A stretch of 64,000 bases of DNA from Candidatus Nomurabacteria bacterium (GCA_020632075.1 JACKGH010000001.1:387216-451215); one strand, 5' to 3'; shown: positions 35,539 to 53,151, counted from the first letter of the stretch. Numbers and translations are program-made. Notes: a model not told the origin generated them from the letters alone.

Positions 35539-36201
35539 ATGGAAGTAAAAATCGAACCATCGTGGAAAGCTGCCCTGAAGGAGGAATTTGAAAAGCCTTA
35601 TTTTGCCGATCTCTCACAGAAGGTGAAAGAAGCGTATCTTTCGAAGGCCATCTATCCTGCTCCGAAAAATGTCTTCAATGCGTTTACACTCTGTCCGTTT
35701 GATCAGGTGAAGGTGGTGATCCTTGGACAAGACCCATACCACGGACCCGGCCAAGCTCACGGGCTTTCCTTCTCCGTGCAAGATGATGTAAAGATCCCAC
35801 CCTCACTCCAAAATATCTATAAAGAGATCAAAGCCGATATTGGTACTAGTGTACCAGAAAGTGGAAATCTTGAGCGCTGGGCCAAGCAAGGAGTCCTACT
35901 TCTCAACGCCACGCTAACGGTAGAACAAAGCAAGCCCGGCTCACACCAAGGACTCGGCTGGGAGCAGTTTACCGACTCGGTGATCAAAACTATCTCAGAC
36001 CAAAAAGAGCATGTGGTCTTTCTACTCTGGGGCAACTTCGCGCGCTCAAAGGCAGCCCTCATTGATACTACAAAACACCTTGTGCTCGAAGCCCCTCACC
36101 CCTCCCCTTTCTCGGCTCACTCTGGCTTCTTTGGCTGCAAACATTTCAGCAAGACCAATGAGTACCTAGAAAAACAAAAACTATCTCCAATCGACTGGTA
36201 A
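35539..36201 (+). CDS. ung: uracil-DNA glycosylase (family 1)
   Basis: VVILGQDPYHGPGQAHGLSFSV water-activating loop motif, HPSPFSA C-terminal motif; GCGGAG SD. Confidence 0.9.
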   Translation: MEVKIEPSWKAALKEEFEKPYFADLSQKVKEAYLSKAIYPAPKNVFNAFTLCPFDQVKVVILGQDPYHGPGQAHGLSFSVQDDVKIPPSLQNIYKEIKADIGTSVPESGNLERWAKQGVLLLNATLTVEQSKPGSHQGLGWEQFTDSVIKTISDQKEHVVFLLWGNFARSKAALIDTTKHLVLEAPHPSPFSAHSGFFGCKHFSKTNEYLEKQKLSPIDW

Positions 36202-36627: not shown

Positions 36628-38049
36628 TCAAGCCGGGCACACAAACTCCTCGAACGGAATGAACCACACCTCGCCCTTTGACTCATCCGCACCCTTGCGC
36701 GATCCCCAGACACTAATGCGACCGGGTGTGAACAACGCTTGAAAGCGAATGAATTGCCACCAAGTGACCAGGACCACGAACATCGGCAACACCATGAGAC
36801 GACGCGGATGTCGTACCAGGTGCCACAGTTGCCGTGAACCAAAGGTCAGCATGGTCCCAAGGAACGAAAAGACGATCAGGAAGAACAGTGGCATAAGCGG
36901 CTCTCGCTCACTGAAGAACAAAAGCCAAAACCACCGTCCGACCAAGAACACCGTGATCAGTGTCAGCAAGAGATCCGTGTAGTACTGATACATCACGAAC
37001 CACTGCTTCCGGAACCACGAATACTTGGTCGAGATGAAGGTCAGCCACTGACTCGAGGTTGCCCAACGGCGGAAGATGCGATTGATCTGCCGAAGCCGCT
37101 TTGGCATTGAGGTCACCACAGTCGCCCGAGGGTTCATGACTGTGTGATAGCCCAACTGTTCCACTCGAAGCGTCATCTCGCGGTCATCGCCAGCATGTAG
37201 CTGCACACGACGCATACCAACAAACGGGAATGTACTTTTCAGAAACGGTACATTCCAATAGTGCTCGACGAGTTGATCCATCCAACCAACGATGATCTCG
37301 GACCGGATCATATACAACCGACCAGGCAGACAGCCAACCTGTCCAAACAACGTGCCAGCCGCCATCGACGAGCCGATACGCGAATCCTCCAGCCAGTCGA
37401 GCACCTGCAGCAATGGCGTATCCGGATTACGAATACGCTGGGCCGTGGTCACTCCACCGATCTTCGGATCTGCAAACGGCCTGAGCAGTTCACCGACAAT
37501 ATCATCGTTTGGTGTCGTGGGGACCGTGTCAGAATCGTGGAAAGCTGAAAATTCATACAGCAACCCTCGATCCTTCGCCCACTCCACCGCTGCTTCGAGC
37601 ACCTTACCCTTTGCTTCTGGGTCCTTAGCCCACCGAACGCCGTTTCGCAGATTTTTCCGCTTACTCCGCGCATTGGTCATAAAGACGTGCGCATCATACT
37701 GCTTTGCGATCTTCGCGAGCTCGATCCCCTCCTCAGGATAAATATCTGCCGCATCAATGATGCAGACGATCGCATATTTGTCGGTCCACTTCTCGTACGA
37801 AGCGCACATCAGCCTAAGCGACTCATGCATCACTGCATGATCCTCGAGATAGACCGGCATGAAGTGAGTCACACCACCAGCCGACTTTTGCATGGGGTAC
37901 TGCATGAACAGTTCCCCACGCGCCAACTTTCGATGTGCCCACCAGCCGAGTATCTGCCGCGGTATCACGATCAGTGATACGAGCAAAAACATTGAGACAA
38001 AGAGTGTGAACTCCATATAGAAGAACACATCCCTACTGAATGTGAACAT
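36628..38049 (-). CDS. membrane glycosyltransferase family 2 (processive, cellulose/chitin/hyaluronan-synthase-like)
   Basis: N-terminal TMs, catalytic region with DAAD..., GDDREMT, QRIRNPDT, FRRWATSSQW (QxxRW-like), C-terminal TMs; GGGAGGGG SD. Confidence 0.8.
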   Translation of the reverse strand: MFTFSRDVFFYMEFTLFVSMFLLVSLIVIPRQILGWWAHRKLARGELFMQYPMQKSAGGVTHFMPVYLEDHAVMHESLRLMCASYEKWTDKYAIVCIIDAADIYPEEGIELAKIAKQYDAHVFMTNARSKRKNLRNGVRWAKDPEAKGKVLEAAVEWAKDRGLLYEFSAFHDSDTVPTTPNDDIVGELLRPFADPKIGGVTTAQRIRNPDTPLLQVLDWLEDSRIGSSMAAGTLFGQVGCLPGRLYMIRSEIIVGWMDQLVEHYWNVPFLKSTFPFVGMRRVQLHAGDDREMTLRVEQLGYHTVMNPRATVVTSMPKRLRQINRIFRRWATSSQWLTFISTKYSWFRKQWFVMYQYYTDLLLTLITVFLVGRWFWLLFFSEREPLMPLFFLIVFSFLGTMLTFGSRQLWHLVRHPRRLMVLPMFVVLVTWWQFIRFQALFTPGRISVWGSRKGADESKGEVWFIPFEEFVCPA

Positions 38050-38063
38050 ATACTGTCCCCTCC

Positions 38064-39569
38064 CTAGCGAGCCAGATCGACTTCGCCACTCACTGTGAAT
38101 TGAAGACCGACGTAGTTATCTTGTCGGTCACTGTATCGATCCGGCGTTGCACCAGTAGTGAACCAGGTCTGACGACCAACGAGTTCCAATGACCAGTTAC
38201 CCCAAACCAAGCTATCGTGTGGCAGCTTACCGTACGTTCCAAGTGAAGCCTCAGCATACGTTTGGTTATTCCACCACTGCTCATTATTGTCTGGAGCTTC
38301 CACAAACCCAAACTTCAAGCCCGGGCCAGCTTCGACATCTTCAGCAATACCCCAGAGAGCACGCTGTCTCACATGACCACGGATCAGTGGACCGGCCTTG
38401 CCAAACGGCTGACCAGAGGCTGGATTGATTGCTGGATTATCAGCTTCATCAAATGGAAGCGTCATTTTAACGTAGAAGTTAAAGGGTGCACGAAAATCTT
38501 TCCGTACCGATCTTTCTTGCTCAGGCACATCAATCGTACCTGCCCACTTCTGCCGATATTCGCTCAACAGATCGCGAAATGCTCTGCGTTCAGCGTCATC
38601 AGAAAGCCCCCAGTCAATAACAACCGTATTGGAAGCCTTTCCGACTGGCACTTGACCAAAGTAGAACGTGATCATCTCGACCCGCGGAAAATCAGTATGA
38701 ATTGATTCCAACATCTTCCGGAACCACGCCACCTTCTTTCCGCCAGTACACTGACCAGAGGTCGACACCTCCGCAATATTGATCGGACCGGCGACACCTC
38801 GACGAATGAGCTCGTTGTAGATTGGACGAAACTCGTACTGAAACGAACGTTCGTACCTATACTTCGGCGCAGTACCACATCGATTGTACGTCGAAATGGC
38901 TGTGGCGGGCATAAAGCGGTTTATTTGAGCGACATACCGATCACCATCTTTTAAAACCCCTTCACCTCCTGCGTCAGTGCGATTGTAGTTCACCTCGTAG
39001 TAGCGCACGTTCACCTTTTCTCGTTCGAAAATGGAGACTATGTGACTCTCTGCTGCTACCGCCAGTTCTGGAGTGTTCCCCGTTGCGTACATGCCCCAGG
39101 GATACCAGTTGCCATTGAGCTCATGCATAACACGAAGCGCCGCCAGCTGCCGACCGTCTTTCTTGATTTTGGCCGACAGCTCATACAGCGCTTCGTCGTA
39201 CACACCAGTAAGCACTTGCCAGTGTATCCCAGCAACTTCATTACCAAGGCTCGTCGCCTCGCTTGAACCGACAGTAGACGTAACACCATCATCAACGATG
39301 ACAGTGAGGACCACTTCGTAACCATGATCAAGATACTCGCGCCGCACCCATTCGTAGGGATTAGCTCGGTTCTCATCCGACATAAGCTTGTAGTACAGGG
39401 TGGCACAGGTGATCCCCACCTCTGTCATTCGCTGCTTGTGCTCTGTCGCACTCCACATATCATCCTTGCCAAGACAAAACTCCCGTTTTGCCTGAGAAGG
39501 TGCCGCAGTGGAAACGCCCGACAAGACTAGCGAACACAGCAGTAACCACCACACATGTTTTCTGATCAT
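38064..39569 (-). CDS. secreted glycoside hydrolase, GH26-like (beta-mannanase fold) candidate
   Basis: Signal peptide MIRKHVWWLLLCSLVLSGVSTAAP; RVMHELNGNWYPWG resembles the GH26 HE(M/F)NGxW(F/Y)WWG catalytic-acid motif; AAGGAG SD. Confidence 0.55.
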   Translation of the reverse strand: MIRKHVWWLLLCSLVLSGVSTAAPSQAKREFCLGKDDMWSATEHKQRMTEVGITCATLYYKLMSDENRANPYEWVRREYLDHGYEVVLTVIVDDGVTSTVGSSEATSLGNEVAGIHWQVLTGVYDEALYELSAKIKKDGRQLAALRVMHELNGNWYPWGMYATGNTPELAVAAESHIVSIFEREKVNVRYYEVNYNRTDAGGEGVLKDGDRYVAQINRFMPATAISTYNRCGTAPKYRYERSFQYEFRPIYNELIRRGVAGPINIAEVSTSGQCTGGKKVAWFRKMLESIHTDFPRVEMITFYFGQVPVGKASNTVVIDWGLSDDAERRAFRDLLSEYRQKWAGTIDVPEQERSVRKDFRAPFNFYVKMTLPFDEADNPAINPASGQPFGKAGPLIRGHVRQRALWGIAEDVEAGPGLKFGFVEAPDNNEQWWNNQTYAEASLGTYGKLPHDSLVWGNWSLELVGRQTWFTTGATPDRYSDRQDNYVGLQFTVSGEVDLAR

Positions 39570-39607
39570 TTGTCTGATCTCCTTTTCAAAGGACTATGAA
39601 AAACACA

Positions 39608-39626
39608 GCCGGCCCAAGGGGCCGGC
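39608..39626. terminator. GC hairpin GCCGGCCC-AAG-GGGCCGGC (hairpin family variant) + T-run on minus strand; terminator of tailspike-like gene
   Basis: Read directly; TGTGTTTTTC follows on minus strand. Confidence 0.6.
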
Positions 39627-39669
39627 CACTCCTGTGCCTAAAGTACAATAGAATTATTACTATGTAAAG

Positions 39670-42600
39670 CTATTCGTTTGGAGGAGATTCGACTACTTCT
39701 TCTGGGTTTTCGTTTGCTGTTTCTTCCGCACTGACCTCGTCAGCTGGAAGAGGTTCGTTTGGTACTTCCTCCTCAATAACCTCCTCCTGCTCATCAGACA
39801 CAGCTTCGTCTTCAGAGTCTCCTGAAACCTCTTCGTCGTCTTCAATCACTTCATCTGTAGTGGTCGAAGTGTCTTCCAAAACCTCTTCCGTACCAGCAGC
39901 AGATGTCGTCGCAGTCTCTTCGTCTGTTGGAAGCACGCCAACTGGCTCAACCACCTTGTCTTCGTCATCTTCTTCAACTGGTTGTTGTTCAACTCCCAAC
40001 TCAGCTTCTACTTCAGCCAATCTCTCTTCAAGCTCGGCAATACGCTGCTGGTTGCCAGTCACAGTCTGCCAGATCTCTTGAATAGCAGTTACCACTGCCG
40101 CCAAGATCGGCCTCGTTGAAAGAGTTTTGTAGCCATCAGGATTTTCTCCCACTGCTTCTGGCAGGAAGTCTTCTATGTTTTGTGCCGAGAATCCAGCATA
40201 GATGGTGGTTTGATCATAGCCACTTTTTTCGTTCCAACTGTAACGAATTGGCCTGATACTGAGTATTTCGTCGAGCCCAGCTTCGTATGCCCCTAGAATA
40301 TTCTTAAGTCGTTCGTCGGAACTGACTGTCACATTACCGACTGCGTCAGTTTCAAGCGTACCGCCAACAATACCCGCAAAACGCACACCACTGGCTACAG
40401 TAAGCATAGCTGTTGGACTAGTGGTACCAATCCCAACATACCCGTTGGTATCGATAGTGAGACGCGAGGTGTTGTTGGTCTGGAAGCGTAACTGATGATT
40501 TGAGAAGGTGCCAAAGAAGCCTTGGAAGTCTTCCGCACGCATATCGAAGATCACGTCGTTGGTCGTATCACGGAAGCGAGCTCCGGCGCCGGCCGGCGCT
40601 ACGATATTCAAAAGTCGACTATCAGTACTGCTACCGATGTTGATCTGCCCATCGTAGATCAAGCCGCCGATCGTACTCGAAGCCACCCACTTGTTGTGAT
40701 AGAGCGGCGGCGGGGTTTCGGTCACACCATCCTCACCAACCTTCACGATCGATCCTTCTTCGATTATAAAATTATCATTACCACCATCGTCGCTGTACGC
40801 TTCGTTCATACCCCAAAGCTGCCCTTCGACTTTTACATATGACGCATTTGAGACACGCACGCCAGTCAATGGTGCAACTGGCGGATTGCTACTGTCGTCT
40901 TCACCAATAATCTGCGAAAGGCCGTTGATAAAGACAGGCGCAACTTGTGCGGTCGATGAACCAATGATCGCTACGCCGGCATATGGTGTCTCGGTACCAC
41001 CACTAGAGTTTGGTCCGTCACGGCGCGTAAGGAGGCCGTTGAAGGTTACGGTAGTTGTACCCGTCAGTGAGATACGTACGCCATGACGGTCGTTGCGGTC
41101 GGTTGAGAAGTCAGTGAACATCATACCGCCGTTGCTTGACGATCCGTCGATGTAGAGACCAGTGAGTCCATTGAATACAGCACGTGAGTTGTTGATCTTG
41201 GTTTCACCCATCGAAGAGAGGTAGATTCCTCGAAGCGCATTACCAACTGCCAAGAGATCCTCAATGTATGAGTCGTTGAGTGCAGTGGCTCGAAAGCCGT
41301 GACCATCGGCACTATAAATAGAAAGACCACGGATAGTGAACCCGCGAGGGTTACCACTACCCGTACCAACTGCCGCTTCAAAACCATTACCGGTCACCTG
41401 CGAAATATCGACGTCAGTCAGTTTCCAATCGCGCACCAAACCTTCAAAATAGACACCGTCCACATCAACGCTGGCCGAACCACCATCGAGACTGAGGTAC
41501 TCGAGTCGACCACCGTTGTTGTGGTTAGTTTCGCCTGAGATAGTGCGGTCGCGCACATGGATCAATGCTGCACCCGAGAAGGTCCCAAAGTCAGCCCGGA
41601 TCGAGCTGCGTGGTGTCGAGCTATACGACCAACGCGGTGAGTACGCACCACGAAGCGTGACTGGCGTATCGAGTACGATCGGACTTGAAATACGATACTC
41701 GCCCATTGGGAAATAGACAGTACCACCTTCGCCACACGCGGCGATCGCTGACGCGATCGCCGCGTCATTGATCGTACTATTGTCACCCACCGCACCATAC
41801 GCCTCCACGTTACACACCTGCCCACCCGTATCGACGAGTCGTGCAGTGGTCGTACCAGCCGAAAGCGTACCTGCGACAGTGAGTGTTTCACTCGGGGTAC
41901 TGGTGCCAATACCAACATTGCCTGTAAGCCGAAAGACGTCACCACTGACAGCAGACCAGTTGGCGGTTGATGAACCAGCCAAGACAACTCCACCCCAGTA
42001 CAGATCACCACCAAAATTGTAGAGGCGATTCACAACATTACTCGGTGACACTTCAGCCAAGTACAGCGCACCTGCCAAAGACAGTGAATCAGCCGGGCTG
42101 CTGGTACCAATACCAAGACGACCAGTCACGTATGAGGTACCCGAGAGGATCGCATCAGCCAGCGTCGGTGTAGTGAGTTCTGCCTGTACAAAAATATCCT
42201 GTTGCACAGCATCGACTCGCTCATAGATACGATCGACTGATTTGAGGACATAATCTCTTGTCGAAAGTGAGCTCGTCGCTTGCACTCCGTCAGCAGTCGC
42301 AATCGCTGCACTGTGTGGTAAAGAATTAATGTATTGCAACACCTCTGTGATGCGTTGATTCAGCAATGATTCTGAAACGCCCGACTGCTGGATCGTTACG
42401 TACTCGTTGGTGATCGTCTCATAAGTGACTGGGTACGTACTTGTCGCAAGCTCTGGATCTTTTTGTGTCACTGATTCACCAAGCACTACTGGATCTGGGT
42501 TTGGTTCATCGAGATGCTGGATCGGCGTAGCTACCGCTACTGATTGTGCACATCCTCCAAAGGGGCGCACCATCCATCCAAACCAGTCACAGAAAAATCC

Positions 42601-42690
42601 TTGTTCACCGGTATTCGCACTCGCAAAAAACGGTGTGGTCAGAGTACTAACCAAAAACACCACCGCTACCATCCGAAGTGCGATTCGCAT
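39670..42690 (-). CDS. secreted right-handed beta-helix (pectate-lyase-superfamily) protein with C-terminal intramolecular-chaperone (peptidase S74-type) domain and acidic low-complexity tail; tailspike/depolymerase-like (1006 aa)
   Basis: Signal peptide; VEAYGAVGDNSTINDAAIASAIAACGEGGTVYFPMGEYRI pectate_lyase_3-type N-terminal signature; long Gly/Asn/Thr-rich beta-helix region; SDERLKNILGAYEAGLDEILSIRPIRYSW...RIAELEERLAEVEAEL chaperone-domain signature; then about 120 aa of E/D/T-rich low complexity. Confidence 0.75.
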   Translation of the reverse strand: MRIALRMVAVVFLVSTLTTPFFASANTGEQGFFCDWFGWMVRPFGGCAQSVAVATPIQHLDEPNPDPVVLGESVTQKDPELATSTYPVTYETITNEYVTIQQSGVSESLLNQRITEVLQYINSLPHSAAIATADGVQATSSLSTRDYVLKSVDRIYERVDAVQQDIFVQAELTTPTLADAILSGTSYVTGRLGIGTSSPADSLSLAGALYLAEVSPSNVVNRLYNFGGDLYWGGVVLAGSSTANWSAVSGDVFRLTGNVGIGTSTPSETLTVAGTLSAGTTTARLVDTGGQVCNVEAYGAVGDNSTINDAAIASAIAACGEGGTVYFPMGEYRISSPIVLDTPVTLRGAYSPRWSYSSTPRSSIRADFGTFSGAALIHVRDRTISGETNHNNGGRLEYLSLDGGSASVDVDGVYFEGLVRDWKLTDVDISQVTGNGFEAAVGTGSGNPRGFTIRGLSIYSADGHGFRATALNDSYIEDLLAVGNALRGIYLSSMGETKINNSRAVFNGLTGLYIDGSSSNGGMMFTDFSTDRNDRHGVRISLTGTTTVTFNGLLTRRDGPNSSGGTETPYAGVAIIGSSTAQVAPVFINGLSQIIGEDDSSNPPVAPLTGVRVSNASYVKVEGQLWGMNEAYSDDGGNDNFIIEEGSIVKVGEDGVTETPPPLYHNKWVASSTIGGLIYDGQINIGSSTDSRLLNIVAPAGAGARFRDTTNDVIFDMRAEDFQGFFGTFSNHQLRFQTNNTSRLTIDTNGYVGIGTTSPTAMLTVASGVRFAGIVGGTLETDAVGNVTVSSDERLKNILGAYEAGLDEILSIRPIRYSWNEKSGYDQTTIYAGFSAQNIEDFLPEAVGENPDGYKTLSTRPILAAVVTAIQEIWQTVTGNQQRIAELEERLAEVEAELGVEQQPVEEDDEDKVVEPVGVLPTDEETATTSAAGTEEVLEDTSTTTDEVIEDDEEVSGDSEDEAVSDEQEEVIEEEVPNEPLPADEVSAEETANENPEEVVESPPNE

Positions 42691-42744: not shown

Positions 42745-44277
42745 TTACGCCAACCCAGGGAAGAAATCTCGAACGATCTGACTTTTTGGAACACCTGCGC
42801 TCTGGAGTAGTTTTGTGTACGCATTGACCATTGGTGGCGGCCCAGAGAGATACCAGGTACGCTCAAGATAATCAGGTGCTCGACGCTTGAGCATTTCGAT
42901 CGTGACATACCCTTCCTCAGCTGGCGCATTCACCGCTTCCTTTGCGATCACTGGGATCACTTCAAGTGGCATGTTATCAAGGGCTGACATAAACTCATCG
43001 ACGTAGGCCAACTCATCTGCAACATTACAGCAGTAAAACAGCTTTGTGTCGTGCTTCTTGCCACTATCAACCATATACTGAATATGACTACGGAACGGCG
43101 TCACTCCAATCCCTCCCGCAATCAGACCAAGCTTCACCTCTTCATCCTTTGGTAGCACAAAGTCGCCAGCCAATTGACTCGCAACGATCTTCTCCCCAGC
43201 ATCGAGCTTCATGAGTTCACACTTGTATGAACTTCCCTTTTCTACCAGCTTAAACGCCAATCGGATCTTGTCTTCGGTCGGCGATGAAGCGATCGTAAAG
43301 TAGCGACGGGTTCCACGACTATCTGCTGCTTCGTGATGTAACATCCACTCGAGGTACTGACCTGCTTTGAAGGTGAAGCCTTTCGGTTTCGCAAACACAA
43401 ACTCCCAAGTATCCTGAGCGATCTGTCGCTTTCCTTCAAAGGTCAAAAACAACTTCTGACGGACTCGCCACGGCAGCATGATGACATTGGCGATCACTAG
43501 TGCCAATTCTGGCGAAACATACAAGAAGGAAGAAAAGATAGACGAGTGTGACAGAAAGCCGACCAATCCACCATACAACGCCTGCGGTCCTTTCATAGCT
43601 GGCATGGTGAATGGCTCAGTGAGCATGTAAAAAGCCAAGAAGAGTACTGGCCATGAAAGGAAGAAGGTGCGAACAGCTTCACTGACTGGCACCTCATGGC
43701 TGATCGACTCAGCAATGTAAATAACCAAACTGACACCTATAAATGTGAGTACCGGCACCCACTTGCGGACTTTCATTACAACCAGTGAACCAAGTATCAC
43801 AAGAGGAATGAACAATGTCGGATTCCCTACCCACCAACTAAAAGTGTAGACTCCGGTAACGCTAAGCGCGGCTGCACCAAAGGCAGCTGGATTAAGAAAA
43901 TGCTGCTTCTTGGTCACAATGACAAACTTCGAAATGACAGCGATCATCACTGCTAAGACAAGTGGCCAGTTGTCGAAGATGTTTTCTTCCGGAATAGCAA
44001 GGAAAAACAAGATCACCGCCGTAATAGCGGCGGATTCATGGTTGGCTGGTATCTTTGTTATAAGCGCGATGATCCAGTTGAGAGACAGCGCCACCAGTAG
44101 CGCAAGTGCCAGAGCAAAAATTTGTGACAGACCACTATAGGCAATCAAGCCAGTGAATCCAGCAATGATCGAACAGGCTGCGAGAGTAAAGAGGGACCCG
44201 AGAACGAGTCGATACATTCCGATCCGGTCAACGAACTGTTGCACGAAATGAAATGGTTTTGAAATTAATGTCATCAT
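42745..44277 (-). CDS. membrane oxidoreductase: N-terminal polytopic RnfD/NqrB-like domain fused to C-terminal FNR-like FAD/NAD(P)H-binding domain
   Basis: N-terminal about 270 aa with about 8 TM and FYMLTEPFTMP (resembles FFMATDPVT of NqrB/RnfD family); C-terminal RRYFTIASSP (RxYS/T FAD motif), GGIGVTPFRS (NAD(P) motif), CCNV region typical of ferredoxin-NADP reductase fold. Confidence 0.65.
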   Translation of the reverse strand: MMTLISKPFHFVQQFVDRIGMYRLVLGSLFTLAACSIIAGFTGLIAYSGLSQIFALALALLVALSLNWIIALITKIPANHESAAITAVILFFLAIPEENIFDNWPLVLAVMIAVISKFVIVTKKQHFLNPAAFGAAALSVTGVYTFSWWVGNPTLFIPLVILGSLVVMKVRKWVPVLTFIGVSLVIYIAESISHEVPVSEAVRTFFLSWPVLFLAFYMLTEPFTMPAMKGPQALYGGLVGFLSHSSIFSSFLYVSPELALVIANVIMLPWRVRQKLFLTFEGKRQIAQDTWEFVFAKPKGFTFKAGQYLEWMLHHEAADSRGTRRYFTIASSPTEDKIRLAFKLVEKGSSYKCELMKLDAGEKIVASQLAGDFVLPKDEEVKLGLIAGGIGVTPFRSHIQYMVDSGKKHDTKLFYCCNVADELAYVDEFMSALDNMPLEVIPVIAKEAVNAPAEEGYVTIEMLKRRAPDYLERTWYLSGPPPMVNAYTKLLQSAGVPKSQIVRDFFPGLA

Positions 44278-44375
44278 GTAACGTATTTAGTGTATCACTG
44301 CATTTAATTAACGAAAGCCAAATGTTCAATACCATATCAGTACGCCTGTTACAATAAATAATTTCATCTTCTTAC

Positions 44376-45032
44376 ATGCCTTATATCATTGCTGTTCTTG
44401 CTCTCGTAGTTGTCGGTGTTGGATACACGCTCTACCAACCCGAACAATCAACTGAAGAACTCGTTTCAAACACACCAACACTATCTGAACTTAAAGAAAC
44501 CATCGCTACCGAACTTGCTGAGGTGACTGACGCAACCTCTACCGACATAGTGACCCTTGCACTCGAAGAAGTAGAAGAGATCATTGCGGAAGAACCAGAG
44601 CCTGACGTTCCCGCACCAACCCCAACACCCACGATCGTAACACCGATACCTGAACCCGCGCCAGAGCCGGCAGCGCCCGTAGTAACACCTGCACCAGAGC
44701 CGGTTGTGACCACCCCGCCACCGACGGCACCTACAAACGACTTTGCTGATGGGACCTATTCTTCATCAGTAGACTATCGCGTACCAAGTCACAGTTACTC
44801 AATGGATGTCTCAGTGACCGTCAAGAACGACATCATCACTGCAGTGAATGTAGCGTATGATTCGAGCACTGCGCGCGATTCATACACCCGCCGTTTTGAT
44901 AAGTCGTATGCGAGTTACGTGATCGGAAAAGACCTCCAAGGCATCAACGTCTCACGCATTGGCGGTGCGTCGCTTACTACCAAAGCTTTCAATAAGGCAC
45001 TCGATAGCATTGAAGCACAAGCTGCTGCATAG
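44376..45032 (+). CDS. membrane-anchored FMN-binding domain protein (NqrC/RnfG-like FMN_bind), Pro/Thr-rich linker
   Basis: N-terminal TM, PEPAPEP/PTPTP linker, C-terminal about 90-aa domain ending SRIGGASLTTKAFNKALDSI matching the D-x-x-[ST]GA[TS]-x-T flavinylation-site region of FMN_bind domains. Confidence 0.6.
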   Translation: MPYIIAVLALVVVGVGYTLYQPEQSTEELVSNTPTLSELKETIATELAEVTDATSTDIVTLALEEVEEIIAEEPEPDVPAPTPTPTIVTPIPEPAPEPAAPVVTPAPEPVVTTPPPTAPTNDFADGTYSSSVDYRVPSHSYSMDVSVTVKNDIITAVNVAYDSSTARDSYTRRFDKSYASYVIGKDLQGINVSRIGGASLTTKAFNKALDSIEAQAAA

Positions 45033-45105
45033 CAACTATACTTGCAATAGTTCGCGAGTATATTATTATTGCTATATTAGTTTAAATTTTAAAGTAATAT
45101 AGATC

Positions 45106-45567
45106 ATGGCGTATATCATTGGAATCATCGTTGTAGTGCTGATCGCAGTTGGTTTTGCAATGACAAAATCAAGCGACACACCAACTACCATCACTACCGA
45201 ACCTGAAACAAGCTTACCAGTAGCTGAGACACCAGCAGTCACCGACACAGAATCAGCTGACACGATGACCACAGTGATAGCTGATGGTGTTCATACTACT
45301 GCAGTTACCTATCTCACGCCCGCCAACAATGAGTACCTACTCGACGTATCGCTCACTACTGAGAATGGCGTGATCACCGATGCAAATATCGTGTACAGTC
45401 AGGGTGCTGAAAAAGATCCAAACGCGCAGCGCTTTGAAGGAGCATACAAGGAAGAGATCATTGGCAAGAAGATCGACGAACTCGACCTGTCTCGTGTCGG
45501 TGGTGCATCACTTACTACAGGTGCATTCAATGGGGCAGTTGACAACATCCTCGCAGAAAATGCATAG
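45106..45567 (+). CDS. membrane-anchored FMN-binding domain protein, tandem paralog
   Basis: Same architecture; C-terminal SRVGGASLTTGAFNGAVDNI. Confidence 0.6.
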   Translation: MAYIIGIIVVVLIAVGFAMTKSSDTPTTITTEPETSLPVAETPAVTDTESADTMTTVIADGVHTTAVTYLTPANNEYLLDVSLTTENGVITDANIVYSQGAEKDPNAQRFEGAYKEEIIGKKIDELDLSRVGGASLTTGAFNGAVDNILAENA

Positions 45568-45574
45568 TACCTAA

Positions 45575-46447
45575 ATGCAAAAAGAATTCGAAGCCCTCGG
45601 CACAAAATGGTGGATCACTATTTTTGATGAGACTTCAACAGAAACCCTCGAGGCGGCCTTCGGCCGCCTCGAGGGTTTTACGCGCGCGTATGAAGCAAAA
45701 TACTCTCGCTTTAAGCCAGATTCGCTCATTTCCACCCTCAACCGTGAGCGGGTATTGGAGCAGCCAGATCAGGACTGCCGCGCGCTTCTGACGTACGGCA
45801 AGTCACTCTATCTGCGCACCAACACGCACTTCAACCTCCTCACCGGCCACATCCTCGAAGCGCGCGGCTACAACGCCACCTACACATTTGAATCGCACGA
45901 ACCGGAAAAAGAAACACCAGGCAACCCAATCACCGACCTACTTATTTCAGAAGAAAAAATCGAACTGCTCCACGGCAACGTCGACATCGGTGGTTTTGGT
46001 AAAGGCTACCTGATCGACGAGCTCGCAAAGATCCTGCGTGAAGAATTTTCACTGCAGTACTTTTTGATCAATGGTGGTGGTGATATGTACGCTTCAAGCG
46101 AACAAGAAAAGCCGATCGAGATCTATCTTGAACACCCAACCAAGGCACGTCATTTCATCCATCGCACTACTCTCCTCAATCAAGGCTTCGCGGCCTCAAG
46201 TCCTTTTAAGCGTGTCTGGCAAAGCCATGACCAGACCTACACGCACATCGTGACCAATGAAGCCGCACCGCGGGTTGCGTCGTTCATCAAAGCAGGGACA
46301 GCGCGCGACGCTGATGCGTTTGCAACCACCGCGCTCATGCTGTCTGAAACTGAGCTTGCCACACTCTCCCAAACAGAAAACTTCAGCGTCGCGCGCTTTA
46401 CCCCCGCCACCAACCAACTCTGGCAAACCAACTCCTTCAATACTTGA
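45575..46447 (+). CDS. apbE: FAD:protein FMN transferase (ApbE family)
   Basis: DIGGFGKGYLIDE (ApbE DxGGxxKGY motif), overall about 290 aa ApbE pattern; directly downstream of its putative substrates. Confidence 0.8.
   Translation: MQKEFEALGTKWWITIFDETSTETLEAAFGRLEGFTRAYEAKYSRFKPDSLISTLNRERVLEQPDQDCRALLTYGKSLYLRTNTHFNLLTGHILEARGYNATYTFESHEPEKETPGNPITDLLISEEKIELLHGNVDIGGFGKGYLIDELAKILREEFSLQYFLINGGGDMYASSEQEKPIEIYLEHPTKARHFIHRTTLLNQGFAASSPFKRVWQSHDQTYTHIVTNEAAPRVASFIKAGTARDADAFATTALMLSETELATLSQTENFSVARFTPATNQLWQTNSFNT
45642..45678. repeat. 37-nt perfect hairpin AAACCCTCGAGGCGGCC-TTC-GGCCGCCTCGAGGGTTT embedded in apbE coding sequence (codons about 23-35)
   Basis: 17-bp perfect inverted repeat read directly; encodes ETLEAAFGRLEGF; resembles the intergenic GC hairpin family. 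Confidence 0.7.
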
Positions 46448-46500: not shown

Positions 46501-46755
46501 ATGAAAAAACTGCTTGCGGTTATTCTGTTCTTCAGCACATCGTTCGCCTACGCAGGCGAGCTCGTCTACAACAATCAACGCGTAACGTTTCCAGGTACGG
46601 TCACCATGGCAGGTGGCGGACCAAACATTTTGGTCATCAACGACTGCGAGATCACCTTCGCCCCCGACCAGCCAATGATGCTCACGACGCCGAAAACCTG
46701 CGAAGGCTTCAACATCTCTCCACCGCTCGCTCGCTCCGTGATCAGTGATCGCTAA
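46501..46755 (+). CDS. hypothetical small secreted protein (85 aa)
   Basis: ORF track 46444..46755; likely ATG 46501 (MKKLLAVILFFSTSFAYAG signal peptide) with GGAGG SD. Confidence 0.4.
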   Translation: MKKLLAVILFFSTSFAYAGELVYNNQRVTFPGTVTMAGGGPNILVINDCEITFAPDQPMMLTTPKTCEGFNISPPLARSVISDR

Positions 46756-46780
46756 TGCGGTGGAACACACAACAACGCAA

Positions 46781-46809
46781 AAGTCCGGCGAACCTGCCGG
46801 ACTTTTTTA
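46781..46809. terminator. bidirectional terminator AAGTCCGGC-N6-GCCGGACTT + TTTTT
   Basis: 9-bp stem + T-run; between convergent small gene and atpD. Confidence 0.7.
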
Positions 46810-46828: not shown

Positions 46829-47464
46829 CTACGCAACTTCCTCCTTCGCCATAATCATTGCCTTCACACGCATGGTCGATACCACTGCGTCTCGGTTGCG
46901 CTCATCGAGCTGCATGGTGATGAACTTGATCGTGTCTTTGAGGTTTGGAATACGAACGTTCTCAAGCGCAGATACACGACGACGAGTCTTCTCGATCTCC
47001 TCTGCGAGGTTTTCAGCCGTCTTCTCAAGCTCCGCGAGCTTCAGGATATCTACGAACACCGCGTCGAATTTCACCATGGCGTTGTCAAGGTCCCCCGTCG
47101 TTTCAAGCATACCGTATGAAAAGGCTGAACCAGTCTTTTCAATCGTGAACTCAGGAATCTTCACTGACATTACGCTGTTGATCTTCACCCCAAGATCGAT
47201 CTTCGCGTTTGGCACCATGAAGGCGGTGTTGAGTGCTGCAGCAGACGCCATACCACTCGCCCGAGCATATGAGTCAAACGCAGAACCGAGCCGCTCCTCA
47301 ACGCTCTCGCGTAGTGCCTTGGTCTCGTGGATGATCGCCATGAACTTCTTCACGAGTCCATCTCGCTTATCTTTGAGTAGCTTATGTCCCTTCTGCGCAG
47401 TCTTGAGCTCCTTCTTGAGCCGAAGGAGCGAGACGCGAGTTGGGTTAACTTTTAAAATCGCCAT
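46829..47464 (-). CDS. atpD: V/A-type ATP synthase subunit D
   Basis: MAILKVNPTRVSLLRLKKELKTAQKGHKLLKDKRDGL canonical subunit D N-terminus. Confidence 0.85.
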   Translation of the reverse strand: MAILKVNPTRVSLLRLKKELKTAQKGHKLLKDKRDGLVKKFMAIIHETKALRESVEERLGSAFDSYARASGMASAAALNTAFMVPNAKIDLGVKINSVMSVKIPEFTIEKTGSAFSYGMLETTGDLDNAMVKFDAVFVDILKLAELEKTAENLAEEIEKTRRRVSALENVRIPNLKDTIKFITMQLDERNRDAVVSTMRVKAMIMAKEEVA

Positions 47465-47472
47465 ACGACAAC

Positions 47473-48867
47473 TTATCCAGTTACCTCTTCTGCAGTCTTC
47501 GGCATGTACTGCTCAATCTGTTCTGGCTTCACACGCTTGAGTGAGGTCTTTGGTAGCATTGTGAGCAACTTCCAACCAATATCAAGTGATTCTTCTACTG
47601 AACGGTTTTCAAATTCTCCCTGGCCCACGAACTCTCGTTCGAAGGCATCAGCAAACTTCAGGTGTGCGCGGTCAGTGTCATCAAGTGACGCTTCACCAAG
47701 CACCACCGCGAGCTCGCGTACTTCACGACCAGTTGCGTATGACGCAAAGAGCTGGTCCTTCAGTGCTGAGTGATCAGCGCGAGTCTTCCCCTCACCGACT
47801 CCGGCAGACCAGAGTCGTGAAAGTGAACCTTGTACGTCAACTGGTGGAAATACACCCTTACGGTAGAGTTCGCGAGACACCACGAACTGCCCCTCGGTAA
47901 TGTAGCCAGTGAGGTCTGGTACCGGGTGAGTCTTGTCGTCGTCTGGCATGGTAAGGATTGGGATCTGCGTGATGGTTCCCTGCTTGCCCTTTACGCGTCC
48001 TGCTCGCTCGTAAATAGTTGAAAGGTCGGTGTAGAGGTAACCTGGGTACCCGCGGCGTCCTGGCACTTCCTTACGAGCTGAAGACACTTCACGAAGTGCC
48101 TCACAGTAGTTGGTAAGGTCAGTGAGGATCACGAGCACGTGCTTACCTTTTTCAAAGGCGAGGTACTCAGCTGTGGTGAGTGCCATACGTGGAGTTGATA
48201 CACGTTCTACCACTGGGTCAGCTGCCGTGTTGATGAAGAGCACTGAACGCTCGAGCGCTCCTGCCTCTTCGAATTCACGACGGAAGTATTCTGCTTCCTC
48301 AAATGACACACCAAGCGTCGCGAAGACAATCGCAAAGTCTGAACCATCCTTCACCGATGCCTGACGCGCGATCTGTGCCGCGAGGCGTGAGTGTGGAAGA
48401 CCAGCACCTGAGAAAATCGGAAGCTTCTGTCCACGCACGAGCGTGTTCATCACATCGATTGATGACACGCCAGTCTGAATGAAGTCGTTCGGGAATTCGC
48501 GTGAGTATGGATTGATCGGCTCACCCGCGATATCTCGACGCTGTTCTGGCACGATCTCTGGGCCACCGTCTGCTACTTCACCAGCACCATTGAACACGCG
48601 ACCAAGCATGTCTTCTGACACGCCGAGCTTGAGTGTTTCACCACGGAAGCGAGCGCGTGTACCTTCAGCTGTCATACCACTGGTTGACGCAAACATCTGT
48701 ACCACTGCCTTATCTTTTGCAATGTCGAGCACTTTACCGAAGCGTGGCGTGCTTTCTCCGGCCACATTAACCTCTACGAGTTCTTCGTACTTCACTCCTT
48801 CTACCCCCTCTACCACCATTAGCGGTCCAGCGATTGAAGAAATGTCTGTGTATTCTTTGTTACTCAT
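47473..48867 (-). CDS. atpB: V/A-type ATP synthase subunit B (regulatory)
   Basis: 464 aa, nucleotide-binding-fold motifs ([15 protein letters not shown] region) typical of B subunit without full P-loop. Confidence 0.9.
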
Positions 48868-48881
48868 GATACTGCTATTAC

Positions 48882-50675
48882 TTAGGCGGTTAGAGCGGCA
48901 ATTTCAGCACGCACGGTTTCCTGGAATTTCTGATAATCCTCCTTCTTCCACTCAAGCTTCTCCTTAAGTCGTGCTACTTCACTGTAGCTTGGGATAGAAG
49001 TGAACGTTGCAAATTCAAACTCTGGCTGCGCCACTACAGACTGACCAGCTTCGAAGATGGTCACGATTGACTTGAGGATACCGTACTGTCGCTCAAGCGG
49101 TGTGTACGCGTCGTCCTTATCGAATGCGTTCTGGAAGAGGAAGTCTTCACGGATCATACGAGCCGTTTCGAGAATGAGTCGGTCACCGTTTGAGAGTGAC
49201 TCCATACCCACGAGACGAACGATCTCGAGAAGCTTTGATTCCTTTTCAAGGAGTGTCATAGCGGTGGCACGCACTGCAGCAAAATCATCTGCGATCTGTT
49301 CTTTCCAGAATCCCTCAAAGTTCTGAGCGTAGAGTGAGTATGAGTTCAACCAGTTGATTGATGGGAAGTGCTTCTTGTATGCTAAGTCAGCGTCGAGTGA
49401 CCAGAAGGTCTTGGTTACACGAAGTGTCGCCTGTGACACAGGCTCTGAAAGGTCTCCACCTGGAGGCGACACCGCACCGATCACGGTCAGTGATCCAACG
49501 CGTCCTTCGCTACCAAGTGTCTTTACAATACCTGCTCGTTCGTAGAATTCAGCAGTCCGTGATGAGAGGTACGCTGGGTATCCTTCTTCACCTGGCATTT
49601 CTTCGAGGCGTCCTGAGATCTCACGCATCGCTTCTGCCCAACGTGAGGTTGAGTCAGCCATGAGCGCTACGTTGTAACCCATGTCGCGGTAGTATTCTGC
49701 AATCGTGATACCAGTATAGACCGACGCTTCACGCGCCGCCACTGGCATGTTTGACGTGTTGGCGATAAGGATCGTTCGCTTCATGAGCGGCTCGCCAGAG
49801 TTTGGGTCAATGAGGTGCGGGAATTCATCGAGCACTTCAGTCATCTCATTTCCACGCTCACCACAACCAATGTACACAATGATCTCCGCGTCACAGAACT
49901 TCGCGATAGACTGCTGGGTCACGGTCTTACCGGCACCGAACGGACCAGGAATACAGCCGGCACCACCCTTGGCGATTGGGAAGAAGGTGTCGATCGAACG
50001 ACCACCAGTACGAAGCGGCTCCGCTGGGAAGATCTTGCTCGTCTTTGGACGCGCGGCACGAATTGGCCAGTATTGAAGCATCGCGATCGATGCTACAGAC
50101 TCATCGGCACGAGTGAGTGTCGCAATCTCTTCGGTTACATTGAAATCACCACTTTGGATAGACGCAACCACGCCGCCTTCTCCTGGTGGCACCATGACCT
50201 TGTGCATGATGAGCGAAGTTTCCTGTACTTCACCAAGCACATCACCTTCTACTACGGTGTCGCCCACTTTTACGACTGGCTTGAAGGTCCACTTCTTTTC
50301 GAGGTCGATTGGCTGTGCTTCGATACCGCGCTTGATGTAACAATCGCCTGACGCAGCCTGAATATCCTTCAGTGGTCGCTGCACACCGTCGTAGATAGAC
50401 TCAAGGAGCCCTGGCGCAAGCGCTGCTGACATCGTGCGGCCAGTGCGATACACCACATCACCTGGGCCGATACCCGCGGTTTCTTCGTACACCTGGATCG
50501 CAGCGACATCGCCGTGAAGCTCGATGATCTCACCGAGTAGTTTTTCTTCTGATACTTTTACCACCTCGTAGAGCTTCGCTTCGCTCATACCATTGGCACG
50601 AACGAGCGGACCGGTTACGCGTAGGATCTCTCCTGCTTTGATATCACCAGTGGTGGTTGTTTCTGTGTTGGTCAT
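48882..50675 (-). CDS. atpA: V/A-type ATP synthase subunit A (catalytic)
   Basis: [10 protein letters not shown]-loop, 597 aa with non-homologous insert region typical of A subunits. Confidence 0.9.
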
Positions 50676-50729
50676 GGTTTCTATTAAATGTTTCTAAATT
50701 TCTAGTAATGAATAAATGATTGTGTTTCT

Positions 50730-50752
50730 GGCCGGCGCCGAAGGCGCCGGCC
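50730..50752. repeat. GC hairpin GGCCGGCGCC-GAA-GGCGCCGGCC inside the ATPase operon between atpF and atpA (hairpin family member)
   Basis: 10-bp perfect stem read directly; no T-run on minus strand. Confidence 0.6.
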
Positions 50753-50757
50753 TTCGT

Positions 50758-51108
50758 CTAAATAATGGCTGCGCCGACTGCCTTCTCTGCGAGACTGCGG
50801 AGTCGTTCGACAGCAAACCCGCTACTTCCCTCTGGCCCTGGTAGTGGTACTACCGCTGGAAGCGGACCGTCTACTACCTTGGCATACTCATGTTGATCGA
50901 CCAGAGCGATCAGATCTTCGATCACACACACGATCGCATACTTGGTGTCAGACTCTGGATCGAGAGTTTGCTTCTTGATCGCGCGAAGCTGCTCAAGTGC
51001 TTCGTCTGCCGTCCGAGCCGGAAAGGCAGTAGCGCCGAGTGCCCGAAAGCCTGAGACTGTGTCTTCAGGGCCAACAATGGCGATCTTGTATTCGTTAGTC
51101 GTTGACAT
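50758..51108 (-). CDS. atpF: V/A-type ATP synthase subunit F
   Basis: KIAIVGPEDTVSGFRALG canonical F-subunit N-terminus; ATG 51108 overlaps end of atpC by about 14 nt (track start 51114 is TTG). Confidence 0.8.
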   Translation of the reverse strand: MSTTNEYKIAIVGPEDTVSGFRALGATAFPARTADEALEQLRAIKKQTLDPESDTKYAIVCVIEDLIALVDQHEYAKVVDGPLPAVVPLPGPEGSSGFAVERLRSLAEKAVGAAII

Positions 51109-52078
51109 ACGCAAGTCGTAAATTAGATCGAATATCCTCCACGGTGAGACCGTTATTCTTCCCTACCACGATCGCACGCACATTGGCTGCAGCTTGGCGA
51201 CACTTGAGGTAATACAGCACCAATGACGCTGACGAGAACATGTCGTAGCTCGCCTCTTTCGCTACCGCAAGTAGACAGTCAGCGCTTCGAGCGTCGATCT
51301 GTGTGAAGTTGCCCGTTGCCGTAAAGTACTCAAGCGCATTCTTCCAGTACTCCACTCCACCGTGACGCGCAAACATCGCCAGTGTCGCTTCTTCTGTCTC
51401 GATCGCGTCAGCCGCAAACGTACCACCAGTCACAAATGACGGTGAGAAACTCACGTCGTTCTTGAGGTGTCGTAGTCGACTCTTGAGATTGTAGAGATCA
51501 ACGAGTGTGGCGAAGTAGGTCTTCATGAAGGCATCACCAAGCGTGTCGACGATGCGCTTGCTGGTCGTGAAGTAGAGTTCATCGAAAACTCCGTCTACCT
51601 CATCGAGTTTGCCAGCAGTTGAAAGCTCTACCGCTGCGTCGTACGCCTTCTGCCATTCGATCTGGAGCGATGCAAGTGCTCGCGCTTCGATCTGTGCGTA
51701 GAGATACTCTGGCTGGTAGATACCGCGCTCAGAGAGATATGGCTTGCAGTCCTCGTACGAGAGACCCTTCGCTGCCGCTTTCGCAAACACACGAAGATTA
51801 TGCACATCATACTGCACCCACATGATCCGGAACATGTCACCCTTTGGTGCGAGTTTGTGGATCAAGCGCTTGGCATCGATCAATGTCTGCTCTACCGCAA
51901 GCGGTACGCTTTCGTTTGGTACACGAAGCACATATGGAGCCAAGTAGGTTTCCTTCAGCGCAGACTGCAAATCCTCACCTGGATCAGCCACCAAGAGACG
52001 CTCCACGTCAGTCTTGCTCAGCAAGAACTGCGTTAACGCGTTCACTCGACTTACACTGTAGATATACGAGGTTTGCAT
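51095..52078 (-). CDS. atpC: V/A-type ATP synthase subunit C (V0 d-like)
   Basis: 327 aa all-helical; position between E and F in conserved operon order. Confidence 0.75.
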   Translation of the reverse strand: MQTSYIYSVSRVNALTQFLLSKTDVERLLVADPGEDLQSALKETYLAPYVLRVPNESVPLAVEQTLIDAKRLIHKLAPKGDMFRIMWVQYDVHNLRVFAKAAAKGLSYEDCKPYLSERGIYQPEYLYAQIEARALASLQIEWQKAYDAAVELSTAGKLDEVDGVFDELYFTTSKRIVDTLGDAFMKTYFATLVDLYNLKSRLRHLKNDVSFSPSFVTGGTFAADAIETEEATLAMFARHGGVEYWKNALEYFTATGNFTQIDARSADCLLAVAKEASYDMFSSASLVLYYLKCRQAAANVRAIVVGKNNGLTVEDIRSNLRLAYVND

Positions 52079-52087
52079 GATTGATTA

Positions 52088-52657
52088 TTAGCCAATTACC
52101 TTCTCTACGATCTCCATCTCAAGCTCAGCTCGCTTGTCATTGATCAGACGCGCAAGTGTGATGTCATATACACCATCAAGAGCTGTGATCATAAGACCAG
52201 CCTTGATACGTGCATCAGCCACCACTTCACCAGAGAGCCCTAGCTCCTTGAGGATATCTGTAGTTTCAGCAGTGCGGGCTGCAGGGGCAGCTACACGCTT
52301 CACTGCAGCATCCTTTGGCACAATTGCCGCTGCGTACTTTGCGAAAAACGCTACATACTCGGCAGCAGATGCACCTGCAATATCTTCAGTCACCGCGACA
52401 AACGCGTTGTCGATCTCCTCGCGCTTTGCACTCTGGAGGGCGATCTTCGCTGCCTGCTTTGCCTTTGATACTGCGACAAGCTCAGCTTGTGCAAGCTCTT
52501 TCTTCAGCGCTGCGCTATGCGCTTCTTTTCGAGCAGTCACGGCCGCATCGGTCTCACGCCGCACAGCCTCCACCTTAGCATCGCCTTCGGCTTTGATCTC
52601 CGCGACTTCTAGAGCTGCGTCTTGTTTGATTTTTTCGATCAGCGTGATATCCGACAT
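52088..52657 (-). CDS. atpE: V/A-type ATP synthase subunit E
   Basis: 189 aa, N-terminal Ala/Glu/Lys-rich coiled coil (IEKIKQDAALEVAEIKAEGDAKVEAVRRE) then globular C-term. Confidence 0.8.
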   Translation of the reverse strand: MSDITLIEKIKQDAALEVAEIKAEGDAKVEAVRRETDAAVTARKEAHSAALKKELAQAELVAVSKAKQAAKIALQSAKREEIDNAFVAVTEDIAGASAAEYVAFFAKYAAAIVPKDAAVKRVAAPAARTAETTDILKELGLSGEVVADARIKAGLMITALDGVYDITLARLINDKRAELEMEIVEKVIG

Positions 52658-52668
52658 GTTCGTGATAC

Positions 52669-53151
52669 TTAGTTAGTAATTGAGATAAGCAAGATGAAGC
52701 TGATGAGCACACCGAAGATAGCCCATGTTTCCACCATCGCTGCGAGGGTTACTGCGCGACCAGTGTTCGCTTCGTCTTTTGCGATCAGTGAAATACCTGA
52801 CGCAGCTACGATACCCTGGTAGATACCTGAAAGCAGACCAGCGATCGCGATCGGAAGACCTGCCACGAGGTACATAAGACCGGTTGCAGTTGAGATCACG
52901 AGCGTACCGTCGTTGCCGAGTACACCTGAGAAGTTGAGGATAAGGAAGGCACCTACGAGGCCGTAAATTCCCTGTGAACCAGGAAGCGCCTGCATAAGCA
53001 GCATCTTACCGAAGAGTGTTGGCTTCTCGCCTACTACTCCAGCCGCTGCCTGACCAGCGTATCCCATACCTACTACTGACCCGAGAAATCCGAGGATAGC
53101 AGTGATCGCTGCTCCAACGAATACGAGTACAATTCCTGTTAATGATTCCAT
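52669..53151 (-). CDS. atpK: V/A-type ATP synthase subunit K (proteolipid c)
   Basis: 160 aa, four TM helices, Gly/Ala-rich GxGxGxG packing motifs. Confidence 0.8.
   Translation of the reverse strand: MESLTGIVLVFVGAAITAILGFLGSVVGMGYAGQAAAGVVGEKPTLFGKMLLMQALPGSQGIYGLVGAFLILNFSGVLGNDGTLVISTATGLMYLVAGLPIAIAGLLSGIYQGIVAASGISLIAKDEANTGRAVTLAAMVETWAIFGVLISFILLISITN

Follow-up and report, generated by a model that had tools for sequence, protein, structure and literature searches.

A somewhat divergent Nqr/Rnf-like locus from a Parcubacteria-group bacterium, encoding a predicted outward NAD(P)H conduit and an ApbE that exhibits no export signal

The described systems closest to the locus reported here are the NQR/RNF-like systems, which were defined as flavinylation gene clusters encoding a PF03116-PF00175 fusion and of which 127 clusters were listed, mainly in Actinobacteria and in the candidate phyla radiation (CPR) (Méheust et al. 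2021, eLife, PMC8238504). The criteria of that survey included an N-terminal PF03116 and a C-terminal PF00175 domain in one protein, with an ApbE or FMN_bind gene within five genes. For these systems, a one-way transfer of electrons from NAD(P)H to the outside has been proposed (PMC8238504; PMC11334425). The Ktedonobacter complex, as modelled with AlphaFold-Multimer, comprises just two subunits, with a membrane subunit lacking the NqrB/RnfD flavinylation site (Huang et al. 2024, mSystems, PMC11334425). In the same model, the flavinylation site of the partner docks near the non-covalent flavin pocket of the membrane subunit, on the outer face. We describe a locus at positions 42745-46447 of a 64,000-nucleotide stretch of DNA from Candidatus Nomurabacteria bacterium (GCA_020632075.1, JACKGH010000001.1:387216-451215), hereafter the window, which is a new, somewhat divergent example of this published Nqr/Rnf-like system.

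The initial annotation, made from the DNA alone, had placed four adjacent genes at this locus, and all four open reading frames (ORFs) were recovered there. The fusion gene (42745-44277, minus strand) encodes a 510-aa protein comprising a RnfD/NqrB-like membrane domain and a FNR-type FAD/NAD(P)H reductase domain, as seen from its ORF, Pfam, hhalign, AlphaFold2, and an exact NCBI match. An AT-rich divergent intergenic region of 98 bp (44278-44375), in which promoters are presumed and no consensus sigma-70 site was called, separates it from three genes on the plus strand. These encode a 218-aa FMN_bind-fold protein (44376-45032), a 153-aa FMN_bind-fold protein (45106-45567), and a 290-aa ApbE-family FAD:protein FMN transferase (45575-46447). 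The 510-aa protein is identical to MCB9816174.1, labelled 'hypothetical protein', on a 1.0-Mb Candidatus Nomurabacteria contig; in the NCBI annotation, ApbE alone is named, the fusion, 218-aa, and 153-aa proteins all being 'hypothetical protein'. Identical fusion and 218-aa proteins are found under two labels, Ca. Nomurabacteria (MCB9816174.1) and a Ca. Kaiserbacteria metagenome-assembled genome (MAG; MCA9354310.1), the NCBI taxon names being inconsistent. Judged from these labels, the host is a Parcubacteria-group member of the CPR.

Both domains of the published fusion are recognised in the 510-aa protein, with 33.8 bits for NQR2_RnfD_RnfE (PF03116; Pfam cut-off 27.7) and 48.8 bits for NAD_binding_1 (PF00175; cut-off 22), FAD_binding_6 being sub-threshold at 16.9 bits. 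When E. coli RsxD was compared with a profile of 27 fusion homologues, hhalign gave a probability of 93.6% (E 2e-7) over residues 2-267, which is nearly the entire membrane domain. The AlphaFold2 model (pLDDT 84) exhibits ten membrane helices followed by a two-domain FNR-type reductase. The reductase half matches the structures of GcoB, of Hmp/flavohaemoglobin reductase modules, and of NqrF FAD domains in Foldseek (E 1e-13 to 1e-15), and gives partial NCBIfam matches to flavohemoprotein, Fre, and NqrF reductase modules. This FNR-type domain (residues 275-510; 42748-43455, minus strand) keeps the R-x-[YF]-[ST]-x-x-S flavin motif as RYFTIAS and the G-x-G-x-x-P nucleotide motif as GGIGVTP, and also exhibits SGPPPM and a C-terminal FFPGLA. 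The RnfD/NqrB-like-FNR fusion proposed in the initial annotation is thereby confirmed by the PF03116, PF00175, RsxD, and Foldseek matches. With regard to the other Pfam families that had been expected, PF02424 is matched over the full domain, whereas FAD_binding_6 and, in the two small proteins, FMN_bind fall short of their thresholds.

The membrane domain (residues 1-270; 43468-44277, minus strand) has ten helices in the AlphaFold2 model, with both termini inside. At about 270 residues, it is shorter than E. coli RsxD (352 aa). On average over the family, the loops assigned to the inside contain 12.6 lysine and arginine residues and those assigned to the outside 0.4. This very clean charge bias gives the membrane domain an N-in/C-in topology, with the FNR part in the cytoplasm and an outward-facing shortened loop at residues 139-154. 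This short loop, SVTGVYTFSWWVGNPT (43816-43863, minus strand), replaces the long loop of RnfD/NqrB that bears the covalently flavinylated threonine. The alignment with RsxD exhibits one large gap, in which about 70 residues (roughly RsxD 150-220, including GISQATPLD) are missing from the fusion protein. The GISQATPLD loop is the site of covalent FMN in RnfD/NqrB, and the equivalent threonine is missing in the described Nqr/Rnf-like membrane subunit (PMC11334425). In this locus too, the membrane subunit lacks a flavinylated threonine, given the deleted loop and a motif scan that found no [ST]GA[ST] motif anywhere in the 510-aa protein. An ApbE target site within the fusion protein itself was rejected for the latter reason.

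The loss of the RnfD flavinylation loop, together with the fact that two of six subunit types are left, could also be read as the mark of a functionless, decaying remnant of an Rnf/Nqr operon. We regard this as extremely improbable, and it is effectively refuted by the level of conservation. All ORFs are intact, more than 100 columns are invariant over the 27 fusion sequences (identity down to 54%), and hundreds of relatives exhibit the same architecture and linkage. Among the conserved residues of the membrane domain, the 'TDP' motif of RnfD is kept as an invariant TEP at residue 220, NPA is found at residue 129, and E81 (invariant) and E190 (near-invariant, at least 90%) lie in or beside membrane helices.

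The two small proteins share the same build, with a hydrophobic N-terminal helix, a Pro/Thr/Glu-rich linker, and a C-terminal domain that is about 95 residues long and ends in SR[VI]GGASLTT. The linker comprises 101 residues in the 218-aa protein and 36 Thr-rich residues in the 153-aa protein. The initial annotation had described them as tandem FMN_bind proteins, which holds for their predicted fold, their transitive homology, and their GGASLTT motif, but both fail the PF04205 threshold. The 218-aa protein scores 15.8 bits against FMN_bind (PF04205; gathering threshold 22 bits) and the 153-aa protein gives no Pfam match to it, nor do any of 89 homologues of the latter carry a precomputed Pfam domain. 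Across 30 family members, only ten reach E<=1 against PF04205, with a best E-value of 0.0033. A family-profile search of PDB sequences found no solved FMN_bind chain, and hhalign against E. coli RsxG aligned GGASLTT to TGATITP at a level that is not significant. A proof of FMN_bind identity at the sequence level was therefore abandoned in favour of the fold and of transitive homology. The domain was modelled at pLDDT >90, and the predicted fold matches FMN_bind, RnfG, and NqrC, with a three-stranded sheet and helices, the C-terminal helix starting at the acceptor residue. Jackhmmer searches from both proteins recruit the syntenic proteins of distant loci. Six out of ten such proteins pass PF04205 (24-47 bits); scores of 18.8 and 20.6 were obtained for two more, and the last two give no match. 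The distant proteins mostly exhibit a canonical D[IV]VSGAT 18-19 residues from the C-terminus, with MKK signal anchors or lipoboxes. The FMN_bind identity of the small proteins is thus good as judged from the predicted fold, with a transitive link to proteins that pass PF04205.

Most relatives have a single FMN_bind copy. The two paralogues are 43% identical over the domain, whereas the 218-aa protein is 77% identical to its orthologue in L001, the related locus that is closest. A recent tandem duplication was rejected, since besides this low identity each paralogue has its own L001 orthologue, and the single copies that the two resemble belong to different lineages. The pair therefore appears to be an old, retained duplication. 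A weak hairpin (45037-45069; 9 pairs, 3 of them G-C) followed by T-rich sequence lies between the two FMN_bind genes and overlaps a promoter-like site. The two paralogues may be separately expressed.

With regard to the flavin acceptor, GGASLTT is present in both small proteins, with Ser199 (codon 44970-44972) and Ser135 (codon 45508-45510), respectively, 18-19 residues from the C-terminus. This serine is invariant in all 30 Parcubacteria family members compared, and the Gly-Ala before it is kept in at least 90%. The Gly-Ala that precedes the terminal Ser/Thr of D-x-x-[S/T]-G-A-[S/T] is thus present, as GGAS, in both proteins. No further flavinylation-type motif was found in the other ORFs of the window, so that the motifs of the two small proteins are the only ones. 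We predict from the sequence that FMN is covalently attached by ApbE to Ser135 and Ser199. The serine had been singled out in the initial annotation as a departure from the usual acceptor; it is indeed found in both proteins, but it is not unusual, as it falls within the accepted ApbE motif [S/T]GA[S/T] (ApbE review), and the replacement of the Asp, with Ser-Arg at the start of the motif, is the odder feature.

The assignment of the fourth gene to ApbE is upheld by a score of 96.8 bits against PF02424, over profile positions 1-256 of 266 and from residue 8 of the protein, and by the conserved motifs. These comprise GKGY (residue 142), GGGD (167), the THIV histidine (224), and DADA (245), which align to the E. 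coli and Salmonella ApbE structures. The protein starts with MQKEFEALGTKWW (beginning MQKEFEALGT), about five residues ahead of the conserved ALGT, and no upstream extension of its ORF is possible. In the alignment with the signal-less Salmonella ApbE crystal construct (3PND), its residue 6 corresponds to residue 20 of the construct. No second ApbE was found in the window.

The same arrangement is widespread. More than 100 homologues of the fusion protein among the matches listed exhibit 52-79% identity and the same two Pfam domains, many of them in Parcubacteria MAGs. A metagenome scan gave at least 492 relatives, and a single-protein scan of genome contigs gave two loci. With the membrane domain alone, 579 clusters (50% identity) were retrieved at E<=1e-10, and most of the best 150 are 470-530 aa long. 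The trio of fusion, FMN_bind, and ApbE genes is present in most loci that are long enough to show it, and FMN_bind is followed by ApbE in 46 of 48 gene pairs. In the window, ApbE lies three genes from the fusion gene, with both FMN_bind-fold genes between, and PF03116 and PF00175 are both above cut-off in one protein; the locus thus falls within the published definition. The fusion gene is divergent in Parcubacteria (L001-L007, L011, L013, and L016), whereas all three genes are co-directional in a more distant group.

In comparison with the published Nqr/Rnf-like complex (PMC8238504; PMC11334425), the locus shares the membrane-NAD fusion, an anchored NqrC/RnfG-like flavinylated subunit, a clustered ApbE, and the absence of a flavinylation threonine in the membrane subunit and of other Nqr/Rnf subunits. 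The latter absence, already remarked on in the initial annotation, agrees with single-sequence phmmer searches of the six-frame ORFs of the window, which have limited sensitivity and gave no match to RsxA/B/C/E better than E 0.4. In contrast, the locus differs from the published complex in that its FMN_bind domains are under the PF04205 threshold, its acceptor motif is SR[VI]GGAS instead of D-x-x-SGAT, and it has two diverged FMN_bind paralogues instead of one. Its anchors lack a positive n-region, and its fusion gene is divergent from the FMN_bind and ApbE genes, not co-directional with them.

Based on these observations, the locus probably encodes a Parcubacteria form of the two-subunit Nqr/Rnf-like conduit, which would connect NAD(P)H, through FAD and the RnfD-like membrane domain, with a flavinylated FMN_bind protein at the outer face. 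In the 510-aa protein, NAD(P)H would reduce the FAD in the cytoplasmic FNR domain. Electrons would then cross the membrane via the ten-helix RnfD/NqrB-like domain, which has lost its own covalent-FMN loop and probably holds a flavin non-covalently. From there they would pass to FMN, joined through a phosphoester to Ser135 or Ser199 in one of the two membrane-tethered FMN_bind proteins on the outer face, and onward to an extracytoplasmic acceptor. ApbE, encoded directly downstream, would attach the FMN to the Ser of SR[VI]GGAS. What is observed comprises the domain homologies, the topology given by the charge bias, the absence of a flavinylation site in the membrane subunit, the FMN_bind fold, the invariant serine, the gene linkage, and the ApbE motifs. 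The redox steps, the direction of flow, the preference for NADH or NADPH, the flavin of the membrane domain, the acceptor, and the site of flavinylation are what we infer, here as for all family members. The conduit drawn in the initial annotation is thus supported by homology, topology, and synteny and coincides with the published model; the newness that it implied does not hold, as every element is already in PMC8238504 and PMC11334425.

FNR modules are reversible. Electrons could flow inward, from extracellular reductants through the tethered FMN to the FNR domain, which would then make NAD(P)H, and the direction is reversible in principle in such systems (Méheust et al. 2021, PMC8238504). 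We consider this very unlikely, as the reduction of NAD(P)+ from FMN would be uphill in the absence of an energy input, for which no coupling subunits are seen, and as outward flow is the published proposal (PMC8238504; PMC11334425).

Several points weigh against an outward conduit of this kind. The FMN_bind assignment rests on the predicted fold, with no significant sequence match. The acceptor motif, S-R-[VI]-G-G-A-S, has no Asp, with a Ser at -6, and exhibits a Gly in place of Ser/Thr at -3. The Asp of the ApbE flavinylation motif has been called strictly conserved, yet its change to Ala had only minor effects on flavinylation (ApbE review). The MPY anchors have no preceding K/R, so that charge bias alone does not place the FMN_bind domain outside. 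ApbE carries no export signal here, and the same holds for all 51 related loci in which the ApbE N-terminus is complete. The genes near the locus include none for an acceptor enzyme, and no biochemical or experimental study of any Nqr/Rnf-like member was found in the literature searched.

Two of these points, the anchors and the leaderless ApbE, bear on the side of the membrane at which the FMN_bind domains are located. In the Parcubacteria clade, the anchor consists of 'MPY' or 'MAY' followed by a hydrophobic helix (44376-44441 and 45106-45171 in the window; Kyte-Doolittle hydropathy, KD, about 3); K/R residues are absent ahead of this helix and often present directly behind it. Such an anchor without a positive n-region is an unusual signal-anchor design, to which SignalP may or may not respond. 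The FMN_bind domains could thus be cytoplasmic and be flavinylated by a cytosolic ApbE, as known for cytosolic ApbEs with cytosolic substrates such as Klebsiella fumarate reductase (ApbE review). The complex would then face inward, as a membrane-associated NAD(P)H oxidoreductase from which no electrons are exported, perhaps with a membrane or cytoplasmic acceptor. Nevertheless, this arrangement is rather unlikely. A long Pro/Thr linker is a typical trait of exported proteins. Among the orthologous small proteins of the wider family, MKK signal anchors (38/53) or lipoboxes (3/53) are found, and the vestigial flavin loop of the membrane domain is on the outer face. The RnfG/NqrC homologues are located in the periplasm, and in the published AlphaFold-Multimer model the subunit is docked on the outer face (PMC11334425).

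The initial annotation had described the module as one of extracytoplasmic flavinylation. The extracytoplasmic FMN carrier is supported, whereas extracytoplasmic flavinylation is doubtful, because an ApbE without signal peptide or lipobox is paired with substrates that carry signal anchors or lipoboxes. A hidden upstream start that would give ApbE a leader was rejected, as 45 of the 51 ORFs allow at most 15 extra residues and the possible extensions in the remaining six contain no hydrophobic stretch (maximum KD15 <=1.0). Readthrough or fusion of the FMN_bind gene with ApbE was also rejected: the two ORFs of the window lie in different frames, and the frames of 44 adjacent pairs are distributed 10/15/19, with no in-frame excess. 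A leaderless ApbE with exported-looking substrates leaves three options, namely cytoplasmic flavinylation that precedes export, an ApbE that is exported by an unrecognised route, or the cytoplasmic FMN_bind domains weighed above. As ApbE can modify a seven-residue tag at protein termini (ApbE review), flavinylation before export is chemically conceivable. It is possible, though we put it forward tentatively, that throughout the family a leaderless ApbE flavinylates the FMN_bind proteins in the cytoplasm before their export, the motif being 18-19 residues from the C-terminus, or that ApbE reaches the outer face by an unrecognised way. Attachment before export would, if true, represent a hitherto undescribed mode of flavinylation by ApbE, and it would spare the export of FAD, which is attractive for minimal CPR cells. 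It would further imply that too few such systems have been counted in the CPR by surveys that demand signal peptides and PF04205 matches. [quoted passage not shown]

NqrB/RnfD is the subunit implicated in the ion translocation of Nqr and Rnf. The complex could also, or instead, be a minimal redox-driven Na+ or H+ pump that operates through its RnfD/NqrB-like domain alongside a V/A-type ATPase. The invariant TEP and E81 and the near-invariant E190, in or beside membrane helices, are consistent with such a role, and the FMN_bind/ApbE unit is faced by a convergent V/A-type ATPase operon (46829-55213, minus strand), which is complete and comprises subunits D, B, A, F, C ... I. This operon also adjoins in L001, L002, L005-L007, and L016. 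However, the adjacency is missing in L003, L004, L012, and all distant loci, and the ATPase operon is convergent, with a strong terminator between, and so is not co-transcribed. The terminator-like hairpin (46779-46806), whose 12-bp stem includes 6 G-C pairs and which exhibits T-runs on either strand, is likely a bidirectional terminator between the two units. NqrD/E and RnfA/E, which pumps also need, were not detected in the window by the phmmer searches described above, and a simple one-way transfer has been argued for (Huang et al. 2024, PMC11334425). A pump is thus unlikely. A functional coupling to the V/A-ATPase via an operon is unsupported by this arrangement, and we treat the adjacency as lineage synteny, not as evidence of coupling.

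With regard to more distant systems, Na+-NQR (NqrA-F) shares with the locus a homologous membrane domain (NqrB), the NqrC fold, a FAD/NADH module like that of NqrF, and ApbE as maturation factor. Unlike Na+-NQR, the locus has no NqrA, NqrD, or NqrE, its reductase lacks a 2Fe-2S domain, and its NqrB-like domain has no covalent FMN site; the NqrB-like and NqrF-like parts are on one polypeptide, and no quinone-reduction arm is evident. In comparison with Rnf (RnfABCDGE, represented by E. coli RsxD and RsxG), RnfA/B/C/E were not detected in the window, and the RnfD loop of about 70 residues with the flavinylated threonine is deleted. The predicted donor is NAD(P)H through the fused FNR domain, not ferredoxin or RnfC. 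The Ndh2/EetAB/PplA/FmnB system of Listeria, which serves flavin-based extracellular electron transfer in Gram-positive bacteria, follows a similar path, from cytoplasmic NADH through a membrane step and an ApbE-flavinylated surface FMN_bind protein to an external acceptor. Its membrane components are unrelated, it uses a quinone intermediate, and its FmnB is an exported lipoprotein, in contrast with the leaderless ApbE found here; FmnB is served by a FAD-exporting ECF transporter (PMC9973259). The NOX/DUOX/ferric-reductase proteins (e.g. Streptococcus pneumoniae NOX) exhibit an analogous layout, with an electron-conducting membrane domain and a C-terminal cytoplasmic FNR-type dehydrogenase, and NOX/DUOX-family proteins are among the Foldseek matches of the 510-aa protein, through the FNR domain. 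In contrast, their six-helix di-haem ferric-reductase membrane fold is unrelated to RnfD, and no haem ligands are implied in the locus.

The locus adds an example and not a concept, as an outward NAD(P)H conduit in the CPR has been put forward before. Respiratory chains are considered to be absent from CPR bacteria. With a conserved conduit from NAD(P)H to the outside, they would be able to shed reducing equivalents or to reduce iron, oxygen, or compounds derived from a host. In the literature, flavinylation systems of the CPR have been described as "strikingly underrepresented". Since the FMN_bind domains of Parcubacteria are invisible to PF04205 and their ApbE is leaderless, published counts of CPR flavinylation may be too low. 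These clusters would escape surveys keyed on PF04205 and signal peptides, and this may be one cause of the under-representation reported. That a cytosolic-looking ApbE is always paired with exported substrates in this family raises a testable question on the site and manner of flavinylation.

Directly 3' of ApbE, the sequence encodes an 84-aa small secreted protein (46501-46755, plus strand), recognised from its translation, with MKK, a signal peptide, and two Cys. A weak homologue is found at the same place in L001 (E 7e-6); the protein has no Pfam match and no homologue in the other loci compared. It is possibly the last gene of the FMN_bind/ApbE transcription unit, its membership being uncertain, and could be an accessory or acceptor protein, or be unrelated.

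On the other side of the locus, three genes on the minus strand (36628-42690) separate the fusion gene from a UDG gene (35539-36201). They encode a 1006-aa surface protein, a 501-aa protein with no Pfam match, and a GT2 glycosyltransferase. The 1006-aa protein exhibits a pectate-lyase-like beta-helix and a Peptidase_S74 chaperone domain and is phage tailspike-like. Because the UDG gene is the immediate or near neighbour of the fusion gene in L003-L007, this three-gene block looks like an insertion, shared with L001 only. Elsewhere in the window, a 2060-aa ORF is found at 5628-11810 on the minus strand.

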